The position numbers and the translations under genes were made by a program. The notes beneath the pieces are model-generated. The model saw only the letters and a list, made by a program, of their open reading frames with translations. It did no database searches and had not been told where the DNA came from. From a virus: DNA of 64,000 nt. Positions 5,641 through 58,482 of the stretch are shown here, in pieces; position 1 is the stretch's first letter, and each line of letters starts with the position of its first letter. Where the stretch lies: the IMG/VR virus record IMGVR_UViG_3300048620_000017, positions 6,005-70,004 of that record. One strand, given 5' to 3'.

Positions 5641-7077
5641 TCAGCTCAGGGTCACGATGATGTCGTTCGGCGAGACCGTCGGCACCTGGTCGATATCAAC
5701 GTTGATGTCGAAGAGATTGGGGACGGCCGCCACCATGCTCTCGCTCGACACATTCGGCGTGGTCGAGACGATGTATGTTCCGGTGCCGCCAGTGCCTGTG
5801 CCCAAGGCCGTGATTGTGGTGCCGACCTTCAATGCGCCGGAGGTGTCGGAAATGACCTGACCGACGGCCAGGGTGCCCGAGGCGACGGCCGAGACAGTCA
5901 GCGTATTGCCGGCGATAGCCCCGGTGAACACAGCCGCGGGATTATTGTTCGAACCTATCTCGATCGAGATGATCTGCGCCCACGAGCCGAGGGCGGCCAC
6001 TGGTGCGTAGAACCGGCTGGCGAACAGTTTGGTACCGATCTTGGCGCGCGGCCCTCCGTCGCCCCCGGCAAACGCCGTGACGATGGCATTCTGGATCTGG
6101 GTTGCGGCATCGGCCGGAACCAGGTTCGAATTCACGATATTGACCGCGAACAGGATCGCCAGCGGATTAGGGATCTCGAAGCTCACCCGATAGGCGGGGT
6201 ATGGCGGGACATACTGCGGGCTCTGGTCGTAGACCGTGACTGTCGTGTTGCCGTTGTAGGCGCATCCCGGAGCTTTCCGGGTCCAGATCGCCTTGGCGAT
6301 GTCGTTGGCATTGCCGCCAACCACGGCGACATATAGCGAGTTCGGATAGAGCGAGACGCCGCCGATGGTCTGAACGTTGTTGCTGACGTTTTCGGTGACG
6401 AACGCATCGATGACATTGGGGACTGCGAGCACCGCGCCCAATACGGACGGAAGCGAGCCTTGCGAGTTCAGCGCGACCGAGGCGGCGCGGCGTGCCTCGA
6501 AAGCGGCGCGACCCTCGACATTGTTGCCGAGCACGCCGTCATCGGGATTGTTGATGGAATCCCACCCGGGGATCGCCCGGTAAATCTGGTTCAGGCTGCC
6601 GGCGGGGCAAGGAATTGGGCCGACCACCAAGCATTCAAACGGCAGGGTGACAGTGCCGCCGGCGCCGATGACGCCATCTTCCGTGCACAGATACTGGTTG
6701 CCATCGGCGGCCAGCGCCAGCGAGCCGGAAGGGATCGAAACGCCAGGCAATCCATTGCAAACTGCTTGCACGACGGTCGGCTGAGACGGATTTCGTTCGA
6801 GGAAGTAGATGCGCGCGATCGCATCCTGCATCCGGCCAGTCGCAAAAGCCGGATCCACCTGGTTGGTGAATTTCAAGAAGGTCGCGTTGACCTCGTCGAT
6901 CACCGCCGTTTCGCTCGTCGCGAGCTGGCCCTGCGGCGTGTCGAGCGCCGGGTTTAGGCCACCGCCGAAGGCTTCGTTGATGTCCTCCGTGACACCGGCA
7001 AGCACGTCAGCGGCAGAAGGGATCAGGAATCCCGTATCGGTCCACTGTGGCGGCGGAACGTTGGTGGTATCGACCAT
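5641..7077 (-). CDS. Baseplate J-like protein
   Basis: [30 protein letters not shown] motifs; gene position. Confidence 0.88.
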
Positions 7078-19886: not shown

Positions 19887-20240
19887 TCAGGCGAGCGCCT
19901 CGTCGACGACGCGGTACGGGCAGCGCAACAGCGCCGCGATCGCGGTCCGCCCTTTGCCCATCGCCGCCAAGCGCCGGATCTCTGCAACCGAGCTGACATT
20001 CGTCGCAGGCGAAGGCGCTGCAACATCGTCAACTAGAACATCGGCCAGAGGCGCCGGCTCTGTCTCAGCGGCCCGCTCTCGGGCATACTGGCGAGTGCCG
20101 CGCCTGATGTTGTAGCGGGCCGCCAATTGGCTGGGATAGCTCTGTGAGACGTTGAAGTCATAGGCGATCTGCGCCACTGGCACGCCGGCCACGTATTGCT
20201 TCAGCAGCGCTTGCCGCTGTTCCTCAGTCATCCGCGGCAT
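19887..20240 (-). CDS. Double helix-turn-helix protein
   Basis: N-terminal GVPVAQIAYDFNVS and C-terminal GKGRTAIAALL HTH-like segments; RBS AAGGGAG; start at 20240. Confidence 0.75.
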   Translation of the reverse strand: MPRMTEEQRQALLKQYVAGVPVAQIAYDFNVSQSYPSQLAARYNIRRGTRQYARERAAETEPAPLADVLVDDVAAPSPATNVSSVAEIRRLAAMGKGRTAIAALLRCPYRVVDEALA

Positions 20241-20265: not shown

Positions 20266-20362
20266 GGCCCGCGACAGGAATCGAACCTGCATGGGATCTC
20301 GCTGCAGCGAGAGAACCGGCGGGGGACTAGCCCGCTGCGTCTACCTATTCCGCCACGCGGAC
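20266..20362 (-). ncRNA. Class II (Leu-type) tRNA-like RNA with aberrant anticodon loop and no CCA
   Basis: GTCCGCG/CGCGGGC acceptor, GCG-GAATAGGTAGA-CGC D arm, GCGGG-CTAGTCC-CCCGC arm, long variable arm, GCAGG-TTCGATT-CCTGT T arm. Confidence 0.8.
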
Positions 20363-20374
20363 CTGGTGCCTTTC

Positions 20375-20443
20375 TGGAGCGGATGCCAGGTGTCAATCCT
20401 GGCTCAGCGCCTATGGAACAGGCACCTCTCACGGAGCATCCGC
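20375..20443 (-). tRNA. Non-canonical 69-nt tRNA-Gly(UCC) with reduced D arm
   Basis: GCGGATG/CATCCGC acceptor + U73 + CCA; GTGCCT-GTTCCAT-AGGCGC anticodon arm; CCAGG-ATTGACA-CCTGG T arm. Confidence 0.78.
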
Positions 20444-20446
20444 GAA

Positions 20447-21178
20447 CAAATTATGAGGACCCGCTCAGCGATACCGAACGGGCGGCGCGCCGAGCGAGTC
20501 CCCTGGCTCCCCTTGCGGGAACCGTCGCAAGGCTGCGACTGCACGCGCCTCGCTGTCCTGGGAGGACCTCTGAAACTGTCTGGCTTGTAGCCTCCTATTG
20601 GAGAGCCATGCCCGCCGGTTTTCTGTTCGCCTCCATGCCCGGCTGCACCGGAAACAGGCATGGTCACGGCCGGGGAGTGTGCCGGCGCTCTCAGGGTCTC
20701 GAAGCCGGTCGGGGGAGGGATCAAAGCTTCGGACTGGTACACCGCCCGATCACCCTCCCCCATCTCCGGGGGTTTATATCGCAGCCAGACCGGCGTTGGA
20801 TTGCCGCGTTGTCGTCTCCCGCCCGCTATCCCAGCAGGCCTCGAACCTGGCATCTCGTTGCCCTGTCGGGCGAATAGGTTGGCGGGTGCCGGGTTAACTC
20901 CCCACCGAGCGATTTCTCGACCCGACTCTGCCTGTCCGCTCTGCGCTTCGTTACCGGACCCAGGGTCATCAGCTCTGCCGTCGCGAATGGCTTCAACGCT
21001 GGTGCGCACCCTCAAAACTGTTGCCCGGTCTCCCAACCGGGCTGGCCGCCGGGCTCTCCCATGGAAGAGCTTTTCAACAATCGGGGCGCGGCGGCTTCCC
21101 CTCCTATTATTCGGCTTGGGCGACAAGGTTTTCTGCAGACGTCATTTCAGCTGTAGTCTGCAAAGGCATTCGCCCAAT
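20447..21178 (-). ncRNA. Candidate large structured ncRNA (~730 nt) between tRNAs
   Basis: Many hairpins and junctions, G-U pairs that work only on the minus strand, T-loop-like GGTTCGAGGCC, no credible protein ORF. Confidence 0.65.
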
Positions 21179-21180
21179 TT

Positions 21181-21257
21181 TGGTTGCGGGGGTCCGATTT
21201 GAACGGACGACCTCCAGGTTATGAGCCTGGCGAGCTACCGGGCTGCTCCACCCCACG
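21181..21257 (-). tRNA. tRNA-Met(CAT), initiator (fMet) type
   Basis: CGTGGGGTGGAGCAGCCCGGTAGCTCGCCAGGCTCATAACCTGG...TTCAAAT...CCCCGCAACCA; C1:A72 mismatch; encoded CCA. Confidence 0.95.
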
Positions 21258-21266
21258 AAATCGCTT

Positions 21267-21306
21267 TGGTGCCATAATGGTTACAATCCGGCACCAATGG
21301 TGTCAA
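21267..21306 (-). promoter_or_regulatory. Sigma70-type promoter of the RNA cassette overlapped by a repressor operator
   Basis: TTGACA (21306-21301), 17 nt, TAACCA; operator TGGTGCCA-TAA-TGGTTACA at 21267-21285. Confidence 0.65.
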
Positions 21307-21312
21307 GCGGTG

Positions 21313-22407
21313 TTAGACGCCGACCATCTGCGAAATGCCCATCGGTTGGCGCACGATCGCGCCCCAGGTGCCGCTGGTCATCTTCTTCTTCCAGGACGAC
21401 AGCGCGCGGACGATCGGATGAGCGCGGAGCTTCTCGTTGAAAGCGCAATAGCCGGTCTGCTGGCCTTCGACGGCGTCAGCGATGAGCTGGACCGTATTTC
21501 CGGCCGCGATGCCCACAGGATTGACGGAGGTCAGCGCGCCATACTGCACCGCCGAAACGACCCGGAGACTCGGGAAGTTCTTCTTGAGCAGATCCTCGAC
21601 GTTGACGTTGAACGAGTTGGTCGCGGTCATTGCGAGCTGCGAACCCGGGTCCAGTGCCAGCGTCATCTTGGTGTTCTGGTCGACGAGGCCAGCGGTCTGG
21701 GTGACAAGCTGCAGCCAGAGCGACTGGATGTCGGCATAGATTTCGTTCGCCGTGGCGACGATCTGGCCGCTGTTGATCCACTTCACGCCGCCGTAGGCCT
21801 TCGGCGCCGGGGTGATCGGCGCCGACAGGTTCGGATCGTTGAGCAGACCATAGTTCTGCAGGCCCTGCACGCCCTTGAAATAGGTCGTGTTCAGGAAGCG
21901 GGCGAGCACGGTGACGCCGGCGCCGTCGACCTCGCTGACCCAATTGACGCGGCCCAGGCCAGCGCGCTCGACTTCCAGCTCGCCATATTCGGAGATGACC
22001 TGGAAGAGATAGGACTGGCGCTGCGGCCAGTTCATGTTCGCGCCGGCATGGCCGTTTTCGTTATAGTCGCCATAGCTCGACACTTCGCCGGTCTGCTCGA
22101 CAACCGGGAACATGGCCGTCTGATCGATCCATGTGCCCTTGCGGGTCTCGCCGAAGATCTCGGCGGCCTTCGTCGGGGCGAACAGGATGCGATAGACGTC
22201 CGGATCGACGAGCGTCGTCAGGAACGCCGGAATGCCGGTGTTCGCCGAGGTCGAGAGTGCCGGCTGCGCATCCATCGCGAGATAGTTGGTGCGGTACGGC
22301 TCGACGACATAGGCACGAGCGTCGGGAAGGTAGATGCCGGCCTGCTCGAACATTGGGCGATGCTGCGCCCAAGCTGAGGCGGCCTGGTTGAAGTCGTGGA
22401 ATTGCAT
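21313..22407 (-). CDS. Major capsid protein (DUF2184-like)
   Basis: FPVVEQTGEVSSYGD, YFKGVQGLQNYGLLNDPNL, GTWGAIVRQP; RBS GAGGAG. Confidence 0.93.
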   Translation of the reverse strand: MQFHDFNQAASAWAQHRPMFEQAGIYLPDARAYVVEPYRTNYLAMDAQPALSTSANTGIPAFLTTLVDPDVYRILFAPTKAAEIFGETRKGTWIDQTAMFPVVEQTGEVSSYGDYNENGHAGANMNWPQRQSYLFQVISEYGELEVERAGLGRVNWVSEVDGAGVTVLARFLNTTYFKGVQGLQNYGLLNDPNLSAPITPAPKAYGGVKWINSGQIVATANEIYADIQSLWLQLVTQTAGLVDQNTKMTLALDPGSQLAMTATNSFNVNVEDLLKKNFPSLRVVSAVQYGALTSVNPVGIAAGNTVQLIADAVEGQQTGYCAFNEKLRAHPIVRALSSWKKKMTSGTWGAIVRQPMGISQMVGV

Positions 22408-22472
22408 GGTGGTTCTCCTCACAGACCGCCGGCTTCAGGCCGGGCGAATGGTTCGAGGTTGATGGGAGGGGT

Positions 22473-23497: not shown

Positions 23498-25429
23498 TTA
23501 GAGCGACTTGACGATGTGGGTCTTCGCGGCCGGGAACATCTCGTGGAACGAGTTCACCCCGGCGGCGTCCATGGCGACGCGCGGCTGCTGGACCGGGTTG
23601 GTGCCCGGCAGCGGCTGGGCCTTGAGAATGGCCGGGAAGGCGGCGGCGGGAACGCCTTCAATGTCGACGCCGAGCGAGGTGAGCGCAGTGCGATAGACAG
23701 CGTCCGCGCTATCATGGGCCATGGCGAGCTTGCCAATGTAGGGGCGTACAGCTTCTTCCGCGGTGCGGATGTCGGCTGCGAGTTTCAGCATCTCGGCGCG
23801 AACTTCGCGCTTGGTGCGATCGACTGCGGCCGAGATCGCCGAATCCATGGCCTTCTTGTCGACCTTGTCGTCGTCGTCTTTCTCGGCGTCCTCGGCGGCC
23901 TTCTTTTTGGCCTCTTCCTCGGCAGCGTCTTCGGCGGCCTTTTTCTTCTTTTCCTCCTCCTCGGAGTCCTCGGCCTTTTTCTTCTTCTTCTCGTCTTCCT
24001 CGTCGTCCTCTTCGTCCATGGCTTCCTGGACTTCGTCGAGCGCAACGAGAAGCGCCTCGAGGCCGTCGAGCTTGGCGTCGGCGGCGAGCTTGCCCTTCGC
24101 AGCCTTGCCGATCGCATCGATGATGGCGGGCCGCTTGGCCTTGAAGTTTTTGGCAGTGACGCCGACGAGAGCCGCACTGACGTCGATCTTCTGATCGGCG
24201 GCCAGCTTGGGCATGACGTGGGCAATGATCGCGCCGTGGGCGACGGACGCCATGCGCGACAGCAGAGCTGTTTTCTTCATCGTGATGATCTCCTGTTTGC
24301 TGTCGCCGACGACTACATCGGGCCCGGCGCGGCCCTCCTCAACCAAGGCGACGTGATTGGCGGAAATGTCCCGCATAACGCCGTCGTAGGATTCTCCAGC
24401 CAGCGTGCCGGGCGTCATGTCGGCCCGGTAGCGGTAGCTGCTCGAAAGTTCTTTCTGCCGATCGGATTCGATCAGCGCGATTGCGGCGCCATCCCAGATG
24501 TTCAACGGCGCCATCAGGTACGGTGCATGGAACTCCACCGCATCGCCGATCGAGCCGACGGTGATTTCGCGCGGATGATCCTTGGCGCTGACCGGGACGT
24601 GCTTGAGCAGCAGCGGCTTGCCGATGAAGGTCGAGGCGGCCTTCGCCAACTCGTCGGCATCGCGGTAGAGGTTGTAGAGCCGCTGTGGATCGAGCCCAAG
24701 CGCCTCGAAATCGGGGATTTCCCGGCCATAGTACGGGCAGACATTGGCCTTGGAGATCGGCGTCATCTCGACGCGCAGATGACCGTCCTGGTCGAAAGTG
24801 CGCACGCTGTTGCGATCCATCGCCAGCGCGTCGTTCGCCGCAACGACGTCGGGCTCTGGCTCGATGTCTTCGCCCTTCGTCCATTTCACGAAGTTGGAGC
24901 GCAGCGCGTCCCAAGCCTCGACAGCCATATCGGCAGCGATGCCGAGGCGTTCGGCGAGCATGTCGCGGAGCCCGGGATGCAACGGCTCGGGCAGCGAGCG
25001 CAGAGGCGCCCAGGCATAGCCGGAATGCTCGTCGGTAAGAACCGGTGCGAATTTCTTCTCGACGGATTGGGCGAAGGTGTGATGCACCCAACCGTTCGGC
25101 GTGCCGCGCGCATCGATGTGTTGGCGCGTGCCCGACGGAAGCGTGCCGATTTCCTCGGTGGTCTCGCGGGCCGCCGTCGTCTCGGCGTCCTCGCCCTCTT
25201 CCGACTTGCCGCCAGGCCAGCACCAATGGCCGGGCCAGTTGGTGTCGTTCGAGGCGCGGCGCAGCACCAGGACATCGCCATCGGGCGCAACCAGCATCAG
25301 CGAGGCTGCTTGCCCCGCGCTGTCCTTGCCGACGAACTCTTCGCCTACCTTTTTCGGAATGCCGAGCGTGCTCCGGCCCTCGGCCGCAGCGTACATCGCG
25401 CGGCGCTGGGCCTCAGAAGTGGCACGCAT
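23498..25429 (-). CDS. Nudix domain fused to DUF2213 prohead protease/scaffold
   Basis: Nudix box GKSEEGEDAETTAARETTEEIG; DUF2213 ISKANVCPYYGREIP, QKELSSSY, NHVALVEEGRAG; acidic/basic scaffold tail. Confidence 0.88.
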   Translation of the reverse strand: MRATSEAQRRAMYAAAEGRSTLGIPKKVGEEFVGKDSAGQAASLMLVAPDGDVLVLRRASNDTNWPGHWCWPGGKSEEGEDAETTAARETTEEIGTLPSGTRQHIDARGTPNGWVHHTFAQSVEKKFAPVLTDEHSGYAWAPLRSLPEPLHPGLRDMLAERLGIAADMAVEAWDALRSNFVKWTKGEDIEPEPDVVAANDALAMDRNSVRTFDQDGHLRVEMTPISKANVCPYYGREIPDFEALGLDPQRLYNLYRDADELAKAASTFIGKPLLLKHVPVSAKDHPREITVGSIGDAVEFHAPYLMAPLNIWDGAAIALIESDRQKELSSSYRYRADMTPGTLAGESYDGVMRDISANHVALVEEGRAGPDVVVGDSKQEIITMKKTALLSRMASVAHGAIIAHVMPKLAADQKIDVSAALVGVTAKNFKAKRPAIIDAIGKAAKGKLAADAKLDGLEALLVALDEVQEAMDEEDDEEDEKKKKKAEDSEEEEKKKKAAEDAAEEEAKKKAAEDAEKDDDDKVDKKAMDSAISAAVDRTKREVRAEMLKLAADIRTAEEAVRPYIGKLAMAHDSADAVYRTALTSLGVDIEGVPAAAFPAILKAQPLPGTNPVQQPRVAMDAAGVNSFHEMFPAAKTHIVKSL

Positions 25430-25446
25430 CGTTAGGTTTTCCATAT

Positions 25447-40818: not shown

Positions 40819-41048
40819 CCTTGCCAACCGTCAATCTCGACGCTCTCGAAGCGGCACATAAAGCCTTCCGCGACCCGGCCAATCGAGGCTGGCACTTAGA
40901 AGCCGCCATTCAATCTTATTTGGTCGCGTTGAAAGCTGAGACGCCCGTGCCCGTTGCCACCAACCGTCCCGGCGATCATGCCGCGATCTATGCCGAGGAA
41001 ACCGGCGTCGATTACGCGACCGCGCTTGTCCACTGCAACATGGATTGA
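40815..41048 (+). CDS. Hypothetical protein
   Basis: ATGA-coupled. Confidence 0.6.
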   Translation: MTLPTVNLDALEAAHKAFRDPANRGWHLEAAIQSYLVALKAETPVPVATNRPGDHAAIYAEETGVDYATALVHCNMD

Positions 41049-41053
41049 GGGGA

Positions 41054-41443
41054 ATGGCTGAGCTTCGAACCTTTTCCGTGCTGATCGCCTGGGATGACAA
41101 CGACGGCGAGCAGGGGAACTTCGGCGATATCGTGCGAGCCCGCGACTATACCCACGCGGAACGCATCGTGCGTGCCCGCATGTGTTGGTCCCATTGGGGC
41201 AACCATCGTTGGAAGGGTGACAGTCGGCGAGGGTCCCTCTCCTCCTACCGCAATGCAGACGGCAGCTATTTCGGGACAGTTCTTGATTGCCATGAGGGCG
41301 CCACTTGGAAAGCTGCCGAACTCGAAAAGGCGCTACGGGAATTACTGGCGGAGGTCGACGCCACGGCCGCTCGTACCGGCTGGGCAGACAATGGCCAACG
41401 TGAGAATGCCCGCAAGCTCATCGCCGAAATCGACAGGCTTTGA
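41054..41443 (+). CDS. Hypothetical protein
   Basis: GAGGGG RBS; last gene before terminator. Confidence 0.65.
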   Translation: MAELRTFSVLIAWDDNDGEQGNFGDIVRARDYTHAERIVRARMCWSHWGNHRWKGDSRRGSLSSYRNADGSYFGTVLDCHEGATWKAAELEKALRELLAEVDATAARTGWADNGQRENARKLIAEIDRL

Positions 41444-41496
41444 TCACGTGTGTACGCATCCGCACCGTCGGCCTCCAGCTGGCGGCGTGGTAGGGT

Positions 41497-41533
41497 GGCC
41501 GCCGCGACTGGTCCTCGCGGCGGCCGATTTTTT
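41497..41533 (+). terminator. Intrinsic terminator at the convergence of two operons
   Basis: GGCCGCCGCGA/TCGCGGCGGCC 11-bp stem followed by a T run. Confidence 0.75.
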
Positions 41534-41807
41534 ATCGGTGCTCCACCGGGATCATCCGGCCTTTGCGAAAAACGCGCTCGGCCGCGTTGCGGGCGCTGGT
41601 GATCGTTTCGCCGTCGCGCCGCAAATGACCGTTGAAATACTTGAGCAGGTTCTCGGTGACCGCCTTCTGCGCCTCGAGCTCGGTCGAGAACAGCATCGGC
41701 TTGCCCTTGGCGCAGAGCACCGGCTCGGCCTGGCCATCCTCGGCGAAGCGAAGCATCGCATAATGGCCGCCGACGACTGGCGTTGTGAAGCCTGCAAAAT
41801 GGTTCAC
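41532..41807 (-). CDS. Hypothetical protein
   Basis: Coupled to upstream ORF. Confidence 0.6.
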   Translation of the reverse strand: MNHFAGFTTPVVGGHYAMLRFAEDGQAEPVLCAKGKPMLFSTELEAQKAVTENLLKYFNGHLRRDGETITSARNAAERVFRKGRMIPVEHR

Positions 41808-42001
41808 CGGCCCTCCTCCTTGACCATGCGCGCATAGTCGGCCGCGATAGCGTTCAGCATGGTCAGTTCCTCGTGCTTCTGCGATATCTCGAAATCAGGG
41901 CGCTTGTTGCGACCGGACCCGAAAGAATTGAGCCATGTCTGCTTTGCGGCGATCATGGCCCGAACGGCTTCGAGCTTGCTGCGTGCTGTGATCGGGCTCA
42001 A
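41804..42001 (-). CDS. Hypothetical protein
   Basis: ATGA-coupled. Confidence 0.6.
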   Translation of the reverse strand: MSPITARSKLEAVRAMIAAKQTWLNSFGSGRNKRPDFEISQKHEELTMLNAIAADYARMVKEEGR

Positions 42002-42705
42002 AGCATGCTCTCCTGGCGACGAATGGAATCGGGGTGCGGCGGGACGATCTTTCGTTCGATGTCGATCGGCGGATCGGCCTCGGCGAAGGTCCGCGCGCGA
42101 AGGTGTTTGCAGACCGACTTTTCGATCTCGCGACCGGTCAGCAGACGGCCGAGCTCGAGCGACAGGTCAAAGCCGCCGGTGCGCTTGGTGTGTGCCACCC
42201 TATGTTCGGCTGCGACTGCCCGGATTTCTTCCGACCAGAGCAGCATGATCATGCGGTGATACCAGGGAATCGTCCTCGACGCGGGCGGCCGCCAATCTCG
42301 TCCAGAACGCAGGACAGGTTCAGGGTACGTCCAGACGGCAGTTGGTCCCCTTTCGCGGCCGGCCATTGCCTCCTCAAGCAGCGTTGGAACCTTGCTTTGG
42401 CGGCCGGCGCCGTGGTCGATCCAGCCCCGGTCCCTGCTCCACTTCTCATGGGCCGCAACGATGATGCCATGGCTGGCGGGCCCAAAATCCCGGAGCTGGC
42501 CGGCGAGCCTGTCGAGCTTGTCTCGCTCGCTCTTGATTTCGCAAATCCAGATGCGATCGGGCTGCACCGCCACGACATCGGCGCGGCTTCCGCCGTGCTC
42601 GACGTTCATCTCGTGGATTATCCTGGCATCGGGCCAAAGCTCGCGAAAGCGAGACACCACAGCCTCGCGGATCTCGACCTCGGCAGAGGAGCGGGTGTGC
42701 TTCAT
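41998..42705 (-). CDS. PD-(D/E)xK nuclease-like protein (MmcB/Sce7726-like)
   Basis: HEMNV...RADVVAV...ICEIKSERDKLDRLAGQL. Confidence 0.75.
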   Translation of the reverse strand: MKHTRSSAEVEIREAVVSRFRELWPDARIIHEMNVEHGGSRADVVAVQPDRIWICEIKSERDKLDRLAGQLRDFGPASHGIIVAAHEKWSRDRGWIDHGAGRQSKVPTLLEEAMAGRERGPTAVWTYPEPVLRSGRDWRPPASRTIPWYHRMIMLLWSEEIRAVAAEHRVAHTKRTGGFDLSLELGRLLTGREIEKSVCKHLRARTFAEADPPIDIERKIVPPHPDSIRRQESML

Positions 42706-43187
42706 GCCCTCACCCATTCGGGTCGGCACTCCAGGATGTGCAGTCGCTTCTTGGTCATGCCGGCGTAGCGCCATCCGGCTTGGTAGAAACAATGTCCCCA
42801 CGTCGGACGACCAGCACGCCAGGTTGGCGTGACCTCGCGCGGATCAACAAAGGTGAACAGCCGCTCGGCCGGCCACCTGGCCCAGACGATCGCCATGGCG
42901 GCAGTGAGCATCTCGCTCGCGACCTCGCCGGCCTCTCGTCGGAAAATGGCGCAGTTCACGCCCTCCTGTCCGTCGAGGCGATGCTTCTCGCGTCGCCAGG
43001 CAGCGAGGGCACCGGCGTCGGCGGTCAGTAGCAGGAGCTTTTCACCAGGTCCGACGATCAAGGCAGGCTGGCGGCCGTCGGCGTAGCGATAGCGTGAATA
43101 ATGCCGGTCGAAGATGTCGCGCGCAGTGTCGTTGCCGTCGATCACCTCGATCCAGCCTTCGCCGATCAGGAAGGGCTGCACGTTCAT
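42702..43187 (-). CDS. Mom-family GNAT DNA-modification protein
   Basis: ARDIFDRHYSR and LFTFVD...GHCFYQAGWRYAG resemble Mu Mom HYSRR and VQSFAD...GVVYQASNF (recalled from memory). Confidence 0.72.
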   Translation of the reverse strand: MNVQPFLIGEGWIEVIDGNDTARDIFDRHYSRYRYADGRQPALIVGPGEKLLLLTADAGALAAWRREKHRLDGQEGVNCAIFRREAGEVASEMLTAAMAIVWARWPAERLFTFVDPREVTPTWRAGRPTWGHCFYQAGWRYAGMTKKRLHILECRPEWVRA

Positions 43188-43191
43188 AAGG

Positions 43192-43563
43192 CTATCGCTC
43201 TTTGTCGCCTTCGAACTTGACCGAGATGCGCCAGCTTTCCGCCGCGACCTTCAGGACGGAACTGGCGACCGCATCGGCGATGTCATCATCGGCAAGCCGC
43301 TTCTTGACCGCCGCTCTGATTTCGTCACGGCGGCTTGCAAACTCGATCTGCACGGCGTTGTAGAGCTCAGTGCGGAGCGCATCACCGACGATGTATTCGA
43401 GATAAGGAACCTTGTTTCCATAACCAGTAGGCTTCCCTGTGTCGGGGTCTACAGGCTTCTCGATCGCCGCCTTGACCATCGCCTCAATCGCTTCGGGCGC
43501 AGCTTTCAAGGCCTTGAGAATTTCGGCCTGGAGGGTCGTCTTGACTATTTCCTCGACGTTCAT
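43192..43563 (-). CDS. Hypothetical protein
   Basis: GGAG RBS; helical composition. Confidence 0.65.
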   Translation of the reverse strand: MNVEEIVKTTLQAEILKALKAAPEAIEAMVKAAIEKPVDPDTGKPTGYGNKVPYLEYIVGDALRTELYNAVQIEFASRRDEIRAAVKKRLADDDIADAVASSVLKVAAESWRISVKFEGDKER

Positions 43564-43604
43564 TTCAACTCCTATTCCGCCGGCTTCGCGCCGGCTGCGT
43601 CAGA

Positions 43605-44561
43605 TCACGGTTGCTCTTTGCAGTCGGCGCGGGTCCACACTTCGAAATCGCATCTGGTGGCGCACGGGCTGTCCCAAATCGCGACCGCCAGTGCACGATC
43701 CGGGCTCCCGCCCTTCCCAAGATAGTCCTCTCGCCAGTCCAGATTTACCCAGAGACTCGGCCGATGACGTTCGAACTGCTGACGACCGATGCCGCTTGCC
43801 CAAATGCGCTCCGGTAGAACGAGACACATCTCGCTGATGCCAACGGCAAAGGCGTGATCAATGAACTCGCGGACACGCTCAAAAGGCGGATTGGTGAAGA
43901 GGGCTACGTCAATCGGCGGCGGAGCGACTTCAAAGAAGTCCTCGCCAGTGGTGATGTCGCCGGTGATGATCTCAAACCCAGCCTCCAGCAAAGCTTTCGC
44001 TATCCGGCCATCACCGGCGCATGGCTCCCAAATCACATTCGACCGCGGCTTCCATCGCGCCACGATTTCGGCGATCAGACTATCTGGCGTGGGGTAGAAA
44101 TCATTCTCACGCCGTCCCTGTTCGCGTTCCCCGGCTTTTAAGAGGTTGGTGGTGACGCGCTCGTTTTCGGCCTCGATGCGCTGGCGCCAGTCACCGACCA
44201 TCGCCTCGAACTCGCCTTCCGGTACCGCTGCCATCTTTTGCGCGCGGGCCGACATCTTTCGATCTATGCCTACATCTGAAAGTGTTGGTGGCTCCGGAAC
44301 CTGTTCCCTCTCGGCACGGGTTTTGGGGCGACCGCCGGGGTTAAGACCGACGGTCGCCTTCTGCGCCGAAATGAGCTCACCTAAACGCCGCTCCGCGCGA
44401 ATCCGGATCTCTGCTGCGTCGACCTCCAACTGATGGTTCTTGGCCTGTCTGGCATAGGCGCGCATGGCCTCCGCCTTGTCGACAAAGTCCTTCACTTCGT
44501 CGATCGACTTCGCGGTTGCCAAGGCAACGCAGGCGGCGTCATACCGGATGAGCAAGCCCAT
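43605..44561 (-). CDS. N6-adenine-type methyltransferase with N-terminal helical phage domain
   Basis: DFYPTP, WEPCAGDG, TNPPF; N-terminal DKAEAMRAYARQAK...RAERRLGEL domain. Confidence 0.85.
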   Translation of the reverse strand: MGLLIRYDAACVALATAKSIDEVKDFVDKAEAMRAYARQAKNHQLEVDAAEIRIRAERRLGELISAQKATVGLNPGGRPKTRAEREQVPEPPTLSDVGIDRKMSARAQKMAAVPEGEFEAMVGDWRQRIEAENERVTTNLLKAGEREQGRRENDFYPTPDSLIAEIVARWKPRSNVIWEPCAGDGRIAKALLEAGFEIITGDITTGEDFFEVAPPPIDVALFTNPPFERVREFIDHAFAVGISEMCLVLPERIWASGIGRQQFERHRPSLWVNLDWREDYLGKGGSPDRALAVAIWDSPCATRCDFEVWTRADCKEQP

Positions 44562-44565
44562 TGGC

Positions 44566-44922
44566 CTATGCCATTTCCGCCAGCTTGGCCCTGACTGGAT
44601 CGAGAACTTCCAGCGTCGTCCTGATCTGGTGAAGATCCGCGTCGGTCTCCTGGTGGCAATTGTCTCGGATCAGCTTGGCTGACGCGACGGCCCGCTCATA
44701 TTCGGCGGTTGCTGCAGCCTTGGTCGCCTCCAGTTCTGTTTCCTTGAGGCGCATCTGATCGACGAAGCGCTTCAGAGATTTTCCGGTGGTGGCGATCATG
44801 GTGCGGACAGATCGCTTGGGCTCGCTTGGGTCGCGCGCCAGTTCGGTGTCCACCGCCTCAGAGAACTCTTCATCGATTTCCAGCGGCTCGCTTCCGGCGG
44901 TCTGCACAGTGGGCATGTTCAT
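44566..44922 (-). CDS. Coiled-coil hypothetical protein
   Basis: Operon position and composition. Confidence 0.6.
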   Translation of the reverse strand: MNMPTVQTAGSEPLEIDEEFSEAVDTELARDPSEPKRSVRTMIATTGKSLKRFVDQMRLKETELEATKAAATAEYERAVASAKLIRDNCHQETDADLHQIRTTLEVLDPVRAKLAEMA

Positions 44923-45012
44923 GTCAGTTGATCCTCATGTGAATGCCGCGACACGACACGCGCGGGATTGCGCGGGCGCGAAGACGGCGGATGAAACGGG
45001 AAAGGCGCGTGA

Positions 45013-45321
45013 TCATTCGGCCTGATCGCCGTATTGCTCGGCAACGACGGCGCCGACGACCTCGTCGACGTGATCGTCGCTCCACCATTTGCCCTTTTTG
45101 GCGCTGATGACCTGCCCCTGGGCAGAACGAGGCGTTCCGTAGGAGAGGCATTCACCAAGGCCTGCCCTGCGGGCCTCGGGGAATGCTATGACCAAGGCTT
45201 CCATCGCCACATGACGGGCGCGCATGCCGAGCTCGCCGGAACAGACCGCAAAGGGATCTTCACCGAAGAGCCTGCAGGCAGTGACGATGGCCAAGGCTAT
45301 CTGATCGGCGGTGGGGAACAT
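45013..45321 (-). CDS. Small DNA-binding protein (DnaA C-terminal-like HTH)
   Basis: TADQIALAIVTAC...RARHVAM pattern. Confidence 0.55.
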   Translation of the reverse strand: MFPTADQIALAIVTACRLFGEDPFAVCSGELGMRARHVAMEALVIAFPEARRAGLGECLSYGTPRSAQGQVISAKKGKWWSDDHVDEVVGAVVAEQYGDQAE

Positions 45322-45746
45322 CAGATTATCCCCTCGGCAAACCGATCAGCTTCCCGATCCGCCTGACCTTTGAGCCTGGCGATCAACTCGGAATGCGACC
45401 AGATGGTCGACCGCAGGGTAGAGGCCTCTGCCGCGATCACGCTGCTGAGGGTTTCGAGACTTGCCCGGTACCAGTGCTGACCCAGATGGAAGTTCACCAG
45501 GAACCGCTCCGCAGCCAGCACGATGGTGCGCGCCACGGCCAGCCCTGGCGTCCAGACGACATGCGCGAAGTGAAGCCTTTCCCATCGGCCGGGCTGCAGC
45601 TGCGGAAGGTGCGCCTCAAGGTTCTCGGCTGTCGCGAGCCGGAACACGCCAGGATCAGCATCGAAGCCAACGGCACACACCGCGGCGTAGCCAGCGCTCT
45701 TCCTGCGATCGATGAGATTGCGCGGCATGGCGACGTTAACCGGCAT
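45321..45746 (-). CDS. Degenerate GIY-YIG/T5orf172-like protein
   Basis: FRLATAENLEAHLPQLQPG...LGQHWY pattern. Confidence 0.5.
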   Translation of the reverse strand: MPVNVAMPRNLIDRRKSAGYAAVCAVGFDADPGVFRLATAENLEAHLPQLQPGRWERLHFAHVVWTPGLAVARTIVLAAERFLVNFHLGQHWYRASLETLSSVIAAEASTLRSTIWSHSELIARLKGQADREADRFAEGII

Positions 45747-57961: not shown

Positions 57962-58482
57962 ATGATCTTCCTCAGATGGCCTTGTCCGTCCGGCAGCCAT
58001 GGGCCTTCGCGCTGGCGCATCGGTGGAAGCCGGTGGAAAATCGCTCTTGGAGAGCCGGCAATCCCGGACTGAGATTCCGCGGCGACTTCGCGATCCACGC
58101 ATCGAGCGGGATGACGCGCGACGAATACGAAGACTGCGCCGATCTCTGCCAGTCTCTCGGTTTCAGCTGCCCGCCGGCCGCCAAACTTGAACGCGGTGGC
58201 ATCGTCGGCGTCGGCACGATCGTCGACATCGTCTCCGAGTTTGACAGTCCATGGTTCTTCGGGCCGAAGGGGCTGATCATCGAGAATGCCCGGCCCGTCG
58301 ATTTCATCCAGGTCGGCGGCCAGCTCGGGTTCTTTGACTGGCGCAAGCTCCTGCCCTTCGCGAAGAACGGCAAAACCGTCATGCCGGCGAAATGGATGCT
58401 CCCGCAGGCACCCAAGCCCGCCAATGCCAAGCCGGCGAAAGTCCCACCTTCCACCATCGACGAACAAGGATCGCTGCTATGA
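57958..58482 (+). CDS. ASCH domain protein
   Basis: ALSVRQPWA...KPVENRSW...RG..AIHAS...GGIVG. Confidence 0.88.
   Translation: MNDLPQMALSVRQPWAFALAHRWKPVENRSWRAGNPGLRFRGDFAIHASSGMTRDEYEDCADLCQSLGFSCPPAAKLERGGIVGVGTIVDIVSEFDSPWFFGPKGLIIENARPVDFIQVGGQLGFFDWRKLLPFAKNGKTVMPAKWMLPQAPKPANAKPAKVPPSTIDEQGSLL

Follow-up and report, generated by a model that had tools for sequence, protein, structure and literature searches.

A D-arm-less tRNA-Gly-like gene in a provirus and its counterparts at phage mom genes: a possible dedicated glycyl carrier

The DNA studied here, referred to as the window, is a 64,000-nucleotide (nt) stretch of the IMG/VR record IMGVR_UViG_3300048620_000017 (positions 6,005 to 70,004) and is part of a 70.5-kb provirus. 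The host of this provirus is probably Mesorhizobium, as judged from its protein homologues and a related prophage (L060) from that genus. At 20375-20443 on the minus strand, the window carries a 69-nt tRNA-Gly-like RNA gene without a D arm. As reported, Mom of phage Mu transfers glycine from Gly-tRNAGly to the adenine N6 of double-stranded DNA (PMC13219725; bioRxiv 10.1101/2023.03.24.534169), which bears out what an initial annotation of this DNA had stated. In this study, D-arm-less Gly-type genes were observed at, or just after, the 3' end of PF25680 mom genes in five other sequence-distinct phage groups, and this linkage suggests a dedicated glycine carrier. Based on these sequence comparisons, we propose that the element is a D-arm-less tRNA-Gly-like gene whose product would serve as a glycyl carrier for a Mom-type transferase, with a probability of roughly 0.55. 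That the RNA is glycylated and used outside translation has, by the same comparisons, even odds or slightly better.

The element was delineated from its sequence, fold, covariance model and covariation, and it folds as a cloverleaf without a D arm. From the 5' end at position 20443, the acceptor 5' strand GCGGAUG (20443-20437) is followed by a 12-nt linker, CUCCGUGAGAGG (20436-20425), that replaces the D arm. The anticodon stem UGCCU/AGGCG (20424-20420 with 20412-20408), of five base pairs (bp) including one G.U, closes the 7-nt loop GUUCCAU (20419-20413), in which U33 and A37 enclose UCC (20417-20415). A 5-nt variable region, CUGAG (20407-20403), leads to the 5-bp T stem CCAGG/CCUGG (20402-20398 with 20390-20386) and its loop AUUGACA (20397-20391). 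The acceptor 3' strand CAUCCGC (20385-20379) then completes a perfect 7-bp stem, GCGGAUG/CAUCCGC, and is followed by U73 (20378) and an encoded CCA (20377-20375). Because the G.U pairs and the CCA settle the orientation, the element is assigned to the minus strand. It therefore has the 7-bp acceptor, discriminator and CCA and the 5-bp anticodon and T stems of a canonical tRNA; the D arm, with its 4-bp stem and G18 G19 loop, is not found in the 12 nt between the acceptor and anticodon stems. The single-sequence fold is moderately above shuffles (z=-2.7). The initial annotation had described a 69-nt RNA with a perfect 7-bp acceptor, an encoded CCA, U33 and A37 around UCC and an AUUGACA T loop, all of which lie at this position and on this strand. 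The 11-nt D region without GG that it also described is instead a linker of 12 nt that ends in GG, and this GG is not kept in the other copies, among which the linker varies.

To place the element among related phages, relatives were collected via the major capsid protein. In these relatives the element appears as an island of 86-97% identity, and both flanks diverge or carry other cargo. Eleven other distinct loci hold it as well, and its three sequence variants show compensatory changes in the stems. A covariance model (R1) built from nine distinct copies recovers 14 copies (nine distinct sequences) plus L224, with the window copy scoring 97 bits, and finds no match in more distant relatives. 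Variant B, present in L003, L004, L005, L007 and L011, has the same acceptor stem together with other anticodon and T stems, and its T loop is the canonical UUCGAUU. Across the model copies 96.7% of the stem cells are paired, compared with 30-44% once the partners are slid. Moreover, five pairs in the anticodon and T stems, three of them in the anticodon stem, changed on both sides, and the covariation score of the element was reached by no shuffle. Collectively, the conserved copies, the pairing and covariation, the strand markers, the Gly-type acceptor end and the T loop of variant B indicate that the element is more than a chance fold, and we consider it very likely to be a functional RNA gene.

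A remnant of a prophage attachment site was considered and rejected, as the element has both of its acceptor strands in paired form, is located midway through the late region and recurs in another structural module (genome G096). Separately, a relative without the mini-tRNA (G046) carries on the minus strand of locus L214, at oriented positions 1034-1105, a 72-nt tRNA-Gly(UCC)-like gene with the acceptor GCGGGUG/CAUCCGC, a canonical T loop and a D region of only 16 nt. From its sequence, this gene may be an intermediate form.

The determinants of the bacterial glycyl-tRNA synthetase (GlyRS) are U73, G1-C72, C2-G71, C35 and C36 (PMC9976931). As the initial annotation had stated, this set is complete in the window copy, which also has G3-C70, and it is kept in all R1-defined copies apart from the lesions of L030 (CCA and pair 7). 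Among 30 host tRNAs, the acceptor end GCGG...CCGC followed by U73 belongs to the two tRNA-Gly species only; CCA is encoded in all host tRNA genes. The family defined by the model keeps the acceptor stem, U73, CCA and C35-C36-A37, again with L030 as the exception, and varies at positions 34, 33 and 38 (U or C in each case), where C38 gives a G32-C38 pair in most copies. Furthermore, U33 is replaced by C, G or A among relatives, and the anticodon loop has either 6 or 7 nt; the loops seen are GUUCCAU, GUCCCAC, GCCCCAC, the 6-nt GCCCAC, CGACCAG, UGUCCAA and others. The T loop is variable as well, and canonical-looking in variant B and L334. Since the D arm is absent, no D/T elbow is present. Judged from sequence, the element keeps every feature needed for maturation and glycylation, and its pattern of conservation fits selection for charging over codon reading.

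These features also bear on the possibility of an ordinary decoding tRNA-Gly, which would serve GGA/GGG codons or replace a host tRNA-Gly lost to an anticodon nuclease. The UCC or CCC triplets, the U33 and A37 of the window copy and the position of the element among other phage tRNA genes are consistent with decoding, and phage tRNAs with altered anticodon loops have been proposed to evade tRNA-targeting defences (PMC10264068). In contrast, the element has neither a D arm nor a D/T elbow, U33 is lost in relatives, loops of 6 or 7 nt occur, a Watson-Crick G32-C38 pair spans the anticodon loop in most clade copies and the window T loop is non-canonical. In addition, the other known tRNAs without a D arm are mitochondrial and work with adapted factors (PMC9976931). 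We therefore regard a decoding role as improbable.

The link to mom emerged from a pattern that required just both acceptor strands, by which G096 and variant C were found. Variant C is 71 nt long and present in four related AT-rich viral contigs; its acceptor stem is identical to that of the window element, and it has a 14-nt linker, an anticodon-like arm with the loop CGACCAG or UGUCCAA and a T arm with the loop UGCGAAU. As the model-based alignment of variant C was poor, its arms were parsed by script; the covariance model derived from the window copy scores it at 25-29 bits. All three of the contigs searched carry PF25680 mom (E 1e-47 to 1e-54), and the element begins 4 nt past the end of the Mom domain, as a 59% GC island in a 35% GC genome. 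Other matches to the pattern (L217, L218/L229, L219/L221 and L228) look like chance, lie inside coding DNA and were set aside.

A total of 160 mom loci (two sets) were scanned with a structural descriptor that required G1-C72, U73, CCA and the loop CCA, and did not require pairs 2 and 3. In 250 kb of positive-control sequence, this descriptor found exactly the known copies and nothing else. Gly-type elements were observed in 12 of the 160 mom loci, all of them on the same strand as mom and no more than about 280 nt away from it, and the adjoining mom genes all belong to PF25680 (E 1e-45 to 1e-73). The elements of L310, L311, L334, L341, L345 and L355 are D-arm-less and 69-70 nt long. L330 and L332 carry a 75-nt form with a D arm and the loop UCACCAA (ACC). 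In L282, L285 (L361 being the same contig) and L286, a canonical tRNA-Gly(UCC) precedes mom by 125-200 nt. In the controls, the descriptor found no element in 80 GNAT loci, none in 42 capsid loci and one in 0.7 Mb of whole relatives; the non-mom controls in total gave a single match in 2.3 Mb, and the descriptor did find both host tRNA-Gly genes. Similarly, default ARAGORN on the 160 mom loci reported tRNA-Gly as the sole tRNA type on the mom strand.

In 11 distinct elements without a D arm, pairs 1-3 of the acceptor do not vary (G-C, C-G and G-C, that is GCG/CGC), and pairs 4-7 change in a fully compensatory manner. Their variable region follows a YUGAG/GYGAG motif that the window copy has in common with them. 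The window copy thus fits a class of mini-tRNA-Gly genes of 68-71 nt with no D arm, a GCG/CGC start, U73, CCA and an NCC-A loop. It does not share the position by which the mom-linked class was further defined, on the mom strand and no more than about 130 nt from the end of a PF25680 gene. The co-occurrence of the mini-tRNA with Mom homologues across phages, named in the initial annotation as a check of its proposal, is observed in the five groups. Collectively, the linkage of mini-tRNA and mom and the known use of Gly-tRNAGly by Mom give strong comparative support to the general idea of that annotation, in which a phage supplies its own Gly-tRNA.

In six of these loci, the mom reading frame runs into the RNA. 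In L222 (1270-1983), L311, L334, L341, L355 and L330, no stop codon separates the C-terminal P(Y/F)PK motif of Mom from the element, whose first nucleotide is at codon position 1, and the frame closes 18-33 nt past the CCA. The mom open reading frame (ORF) thereby overlaps the RNA gene in frame by about 25-35 codons. In L310, a stop lies 114 nt before the element. A mere C-terminal peptide extension of Mom was considered and rejected, as the acceptor strands compensate and the element stands out as GC-rich from its AT-rich genome. Because the acceptor strands covary and the window clade has the element outside any ORF, what is conserved is the RNA and not a peptide. With no stop before the element, 5' excision of the RNA would leave a stop-less mom message, and release of the RNA from that message may be a form of regulatory coupling.

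The stop-less frame also counts in favour of another explanation, in which the element acts in RNA processing or expression control. Under this explanation, the tRNA-like fold is a cleavage signal for RNase P, with a 3' nuclease, and needs no aminoacylation; it would trim the end of the mom message and, in the window phage, set the 3' end of the capsid transcript or of the 740-nt RNA that precedes the element, in the manner of mascRNA at MALAT1. A scan for sigma-70 promoters made no call beside the element, which lies within a multi-RNA cassette downstream of the capsid gene, and variant B has weak sub-threshold Rfam matches to mascRNA and viral tRNA-like structures; these observations are consistent with processing. 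However, RNase P needs the acceptor/T-arm stack only, and a processing signal leaves unexplained the maintained anticodon stem with its three compensatory pairs, the invariant C35-C36-A37 of the model-defined family, the GCG/CGC and U73 that are invariant across groups in which all of pairs 4-7 have changed, and the fact that glycine-type tRNAs alone accompany mom. We consider this explanation unlikely; it is also compatible with a glycyl carrier.

The element is not seen by standard searches. Default ARAGORN makes no call at it and reports in the window only a tRNA-Met (21257-21184) and a class II tRNA (20362-20266). The Rfam tRNA model RF00005 (gathering threshold 29 bits) gives no match to the element, not even when just 161 nt were searched at E<=10, whereas the neighbouring tRNA-Met and class II tRNA score 56.1 and 38.8 bits, respectively. 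In its mitochondrial or relaxed (80%) mode, ARAGORN calls a 'D-loop tRNA-Gly(tcc)' exactly at 20375-20443. Over the whole window these modes return 17 and 101 calls, and shuffled copies still yield 6-20; after this shuffle control the call was dropped as evidence for the element. Variant B matches Rfam below threshold only (tRNA-Sec 19.6 bits, mascRNA 16.2 bits and Tymo tRNA-like 14.3 bits). A blastn search with the element found no match in the INPHARED isolated phage genomes, and megablast of the 4-kb neighbourhood against isolated phage genomes matched the tRNA-Met alone. No mention of tRNA genes beside mom, or of phage tRNAs without a D arm, occurs in the Mom paper or its preprint or came up in a full-text search of the available papers. 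The element thus fits no Rfam family, and a class of D-arm-less tRNAs would escape both standard tRNA finders and Rfam.

Several observations weigh against a glycyl carrier for a Mom-type enzyme. PF25680 mom is absent from the whole 70-kb provirus and from the records of seven relatives searched, even at E<=1, and from the genome of Mesorhizobium sp. WSM3862, the host of the prophage copy L060; the RNA is therefore an orphan relative to its class-defining enzyme. Several copies of the clade have lesions: L006 has lost 1 nt from the T stem, L030 has a G7.G mismatch and GCA in place of CCA, and L007 combines a 6-nt loop with a C.C mismatch. Within the mom-linked set, the descriptor itself demanded G1-C72, U73, CCA and the loop CCA, which are thus not independent there, and the mom-linked groups are partly related to one another. 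Moreover, Mu Mom works with all three E. coli tRNA-Gly isoacceptors (PMC13219725), and a dedicated tRNA is therefore not required for Mom activity. The specificity of Mu Mom seems to reside in the tRNA 3' end and the amino acid (PMC13219725).

For a partner in this phage, the initial annotation had pointed to the ORF at 42702-43187 (minus strand), which it called a Mom-like GNAT and proposed as a hypermodifier of phage DNA that takes glycine from the mini-tRNA. This ORF encodes a 161-amino-acid (aa) protein (P0001) of PHROG 24928, which has no assigned function, and its family comprises 927 clusters at 50% identity with 373 IMG/VR matches. The GNAT fold was confirmed: an AlphaFold (AF2) model has a predicted local distance difference test (pLDDT) value of 85.7, and all its Foldseek matches are GNATs. 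In a structural comparison (VIA), Mom 8bv8_A aligns over 133 residues with Z 11.1 and a root-mean-square deviation of 3.4 Å, tied with dozens of ordinary GNATs at Z 11-12; among these tied best matches, Mom has the highest identity (13%).

No significant likeness to Mom was seen in the sequence. The Pfam Mom model PF25680 does not match the ORF at E<=1 (the control, Mu Mom, scores 253 bits), and neither PF25680 nor any Pfam GNAT model matches 55 diverse members of its family. BLASTP found no similarity between the ORF and Mu Mom, and phmmer against the PDB, three hhalign comparisons and hmmsearch in both directions between the GNAT family and Mom gave nothing significant; hhalign against two Mom alignments reached a probability of 0.2% at E about 0.3, and the cross-searches with hidden Markov models (HMMs) gave E>1. 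NCBIfam was of no use as a test, as Mu Mom itself has no model there. The Mom catalytic residues compared were H58, Y59, R111, S124, D149, R151 and Y159. The non-significant hhalign register repeatedly pairs RHYS, R65, RNE, D115, R117 and Y135-Q-A of the ORF with H58-Y59-S60, R111, RN-E123, D149, R151 and Y159-Q-A of Mom. The helix-turn-helix (HTH)-like insertion of Mom (Mu residues ~175-209), which is essential for activity and whose deletion kills Mom (PMC13219725), is missing from the 161-aa ORF, which stops at the end of the GNAT core and whose AF2 model has no additional helical insertion.

The GNAT gene and the RNA are 22 kb apart. Of the relatives whose early region could be assessed, G000, G002 and G008 carry the gene, and G003, which has the RNA, cleanly lacks it in the syntenic slot. 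G096, a complete 72-kb genome with terminal repeats that shares the early genes and has a different structural module, carries an intact RNA copy (96 bits) and neither the GNAT nor PF25680; in the positive controls, G000 and G002, this profile search did find the GNAT. The RNA model, in turn, matches none of 43 phage records that carry a GNAT of this family (30 of them at least 90% complete), and no Gly-type tRNA-like element lies near 80 loci of the family. The presence of the GNAT thus does not follow that of the RNA. A phyletic profile of the window ORFs (five relatives with the element and five without) was of use for the G003 slot only, being confounded by phylogeny because the early regions of distant relatives are unrelated.

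A donor role for this particular GNAT draws on its fold, on the collinear motif matches to Mom and on the RNA copies of the GNAT-bearing relatives, all three of which have an intact acceptor end. L030, the sole copy with acceptor-end lesions, sits in the one syntenic genome without the GNAT, an observation of little weight with four assessable genomes. Set against the non-significant profiles, the lacking insertion, the distance and the separate occurrence of RNA and GNAT, these points leave the specific pairing doubtful, and the GNAT is a weak candidate enzyme in this phage. The proposal that the phage supplies its own Gly-tRNA for DNA glycylation is accordingly divided: it gains from the mini-tRNAs beside true mom genes elsewhere and loses in this phage, which has no PF25680 and in whose clade the GNAT does not track the RNA.

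The window element lies in an RNA cassette behind the major capsid gene (21313-22422), after a non-coding stretch of 740 nt and not beside a PF25680 gene. The first cassette gene after the capsid gene is the tRNA-Met (21184-21257, minus strand; called by ARAGORN), which has an initiator-like C1xA72 mismatch. Between it and the mini-tRNA lies a stretch of about 740 nt without coding signature (20444-21183, minus strand). The class II tRNA (20266-20362, minus strand; 'tRNA-???' in ARAGORN) begins 12 nt downstream of the mini-tRNA, and the tRNA pair is followed by a gene for a small HTH protein (19887-20240, minus strand; Pfam HTH_23 / Sigma70_r4_2). The order of mini-tRNA, class II tRNA and HTH gene is the same in G096, where the cassette recurs in another genomic setting.

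The 740-nt stretch has no GC signal at third codon positions (GC3) and no Pfam match, and its tblastn matches are multi-frame. Its fold is strand-specific, with a minimum free energy (MFE) z of -3.99 for the sense strand versus -0.62 for the antisense strand. The 3' part of the stretch precedes the mini-tRNA also in L014, L002, L064 and G096, and conserved patches, including a motif like CCCGCAAGGGRAMCCAGGGGAC, occur in L002, L014, L063, L064 and G096. Rfam has no match to it. Based on the predicted folding, the stretch is probably a structured RNA, and it may, like GOLLD and ROOL, represent a large structured RNA with tRNAs on its flanks.

The class II tRNA has a Leu-like D arm, a long variable arm and an aberrant anticodon loop, CUAGUCC (A34-G35-U36 with C37), and ARAGORN assigns it a 4-base anticodon. 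Its homologue in G096 (45622-45720) has a different, apparently 9-nt loop, UUUAGAACG. This neighbour is one reason to consider the mini-tRNA as a decoy or sponge, a Gly-type mimic that titrates a host factor such as a Gly-tRNAGly-acetylating GNAT toxin or a nuclease directed at the acceptor or anticodon. Kept identity elements and lost decoding features would suit a decoy, and GNAT toxins that hit Gly-tRNAGly exist (TacT, cited in PMC13219725). However, the close physical association with mom in other phages is left unexplained by a decoy, and a cognate toxin or defence gene was not identified. We consider this role highly improbable.

Additional features were observed around the cassette. The tRNA-Met closely resembles an initiator tRNA, and L062 has an apparent truncated and decayed copy of it just before its mini-tRNA. 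At 21278-21306 on the minus strand, between the capsid gene stop and the tRNA-Met, TTGACA and TAACCA are separated by 17 nt and overlap an inverted repeat, TTGGTGCC...GGCACCAA. This site is conserved in L062 and was not called by the consensus scan; from its sequence, it is a candidate promoter and operator of the cassette itself. The sigma-70 promoter scan made no call adjoining the mini-tRNA. In relatives, the slot between the capsid gene and the mini-tRNA is a hotspot for cargo, such as a SulP/STAS sulfate permease in L005 (6130-7869) and a PAS-HWE histidine kinase with a response regulator in L006 (5282-7118); in L014 and L062, a short RNA remnant alone occupies it. Directly upstream of the cassette in G096 (40922-45175; L395 922-5175), genes for an aminotransferase, an S-adenosylmethionine (SAM) methyltransferase, a radical SAM/SPASM protein and an uncharacterised 447-aa protein form what their sequences indicate is a small biosynthetic cluster. 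Elsewhere in the window, the head maturation protease (DUF2213, PHROG 2229; 23498-25444, minus strand) has a fused N-terminal NUDIX hydrolase domain. In Mesorhizobium sp. WSM3862 (G095), contig 7 carries a run of five low-scoring tRNA genes confined to 440 nt (57988-58425), which may be another mobile-element tRNA cluster.

If the element is a glycyl carrier, RNase P and 3' nucleases would cut out the mini-tRNA, host GlyRS would charge it, and the glycylated RNA would stay largely outside the EF-Tu/ribosome pool and feed a tRNA-dependent, Mom-type transferase. A fuller scenario is tentative at best. In many mom phages, a dedicated ribosome-incompetent carrier would be embedded in frame in the final 25-35 codons of the mom ORF, so that its release by RNase P truncates the mom message and ties enzyme dosage to the supply of donor; in the window clade, the carrier would have been captured in a mobile cassette and would serve a second tRNA-dependent transferase, possibly of the short-GNAT family to which ORF 42702-43187 belongs. 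The RNA would then mark the window phage as having a glycyl-accepting enzyme still to be recognised.

How Mom works chemically was established only recently, and in the literature the phage is seen as scavenging Gly-tRNAGly from its host. A dedicated carrier would mean that tRNA-dependent DNA modification has its own carrier RNA, and it would define a class of bacterial or viral D-arm-less tRNAs. The in-frame RNA in the mom ORF hints at a new coupling between the expression of an enzyme and that of its co-substrate. Furthermore, the mini-tRNA would provide a minimal testable substrate for GlyRS and for structural work on Mom, using published assays.

Several known systems resemble the element in part. 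Like mascRNA at the MALAT1 3' end and the viral 3' tRNA-like structures, it is a small tRNA-like fold at a transcript end that tRNA-processing enzymes would recognise. In contrast, those RNAs are eukaryotic or from plant viruses and are under no such amino-acid identity constraint, and variant B reaches 16 bits against a mascRNA threshold of 42.5. The D-arm-less mitochondrial tRNAs, such as mt-tRNA-Ser(GCU) and those of nematodes, have the same type of secondary structure, with acceptor, anticodon and T arms and a short D-replacement loop, and ARAGORN in mitochondrial mode depicts the element in this form; they decode on specialised ribosomes with adapted factors, whereas relatives of the phage element lose U33 and the 7-nt loop. 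With ordinary phage tRNA genes (PMC10264068), the element shares its place in a phage tRNA cluster on the late-gene strand and the encoded CCA. It differs from them in being missed by standard finders, in lacking a D arm and in a conservation that points to charging over decoding.

Mu Mom, of PF25680, is the sole known DNA modifier that uses Gly-tRNAGly (PMC13219725), and mini-tRNAs of the same build as the window element are attached to PF25680 genes elsewhere. Mu Mom itself uses host tRNA-Gly, and no phage tRNA is mentioned in the Mom papers; the window phage, by comparison, has no PF25680, and its GNAT is shorter than Mom.

The idea of a dedicated non-ribosomal tRNA-Gly is already known from staphylococci, and the phage mini-tRNA-Gly class was not found described. 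As reported, the non-proteogenic tRNA-Gly species of Staphylococcus (NP1-3) bind EF-Tu weakly and are glycyl donors for FmhB, FemA and FemB (PMC7826273). No Fem-type family is among the 25/30 Pfam families listed for 47+30 window ORFs. The weak EF-Tu T stem of the staphylococcal tRNAs is A49-U65, U50-A64 and A51-U63; that of the window copy is C49-G65, C50-G64 and A51-U63, and variant B has G51-C63. The initial annotation had held that these tRNAs lose the same D- and T-loop features as the phage RNA, but the staphylococcal tRNAs keep their D arm, and their weak EF-Tu T stem is matched only in part, at A51-U63. They are chromosomal and form a full cloverleaf, whereas the phage element is viral and D-arm-less. 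Nevertheless, in both cases the differences from an ordinary tRNA are concentrated in the D and T regions, and the phage RNA would likewise accept glycine, be chargeable by GlyRS and be diverted from EF-Tu and the ribosome to a tRNA-dependent transferase. If so, the mini-tRNA would be a phage parallel to the tRNA-Gly of the staphylococcal cell wall.

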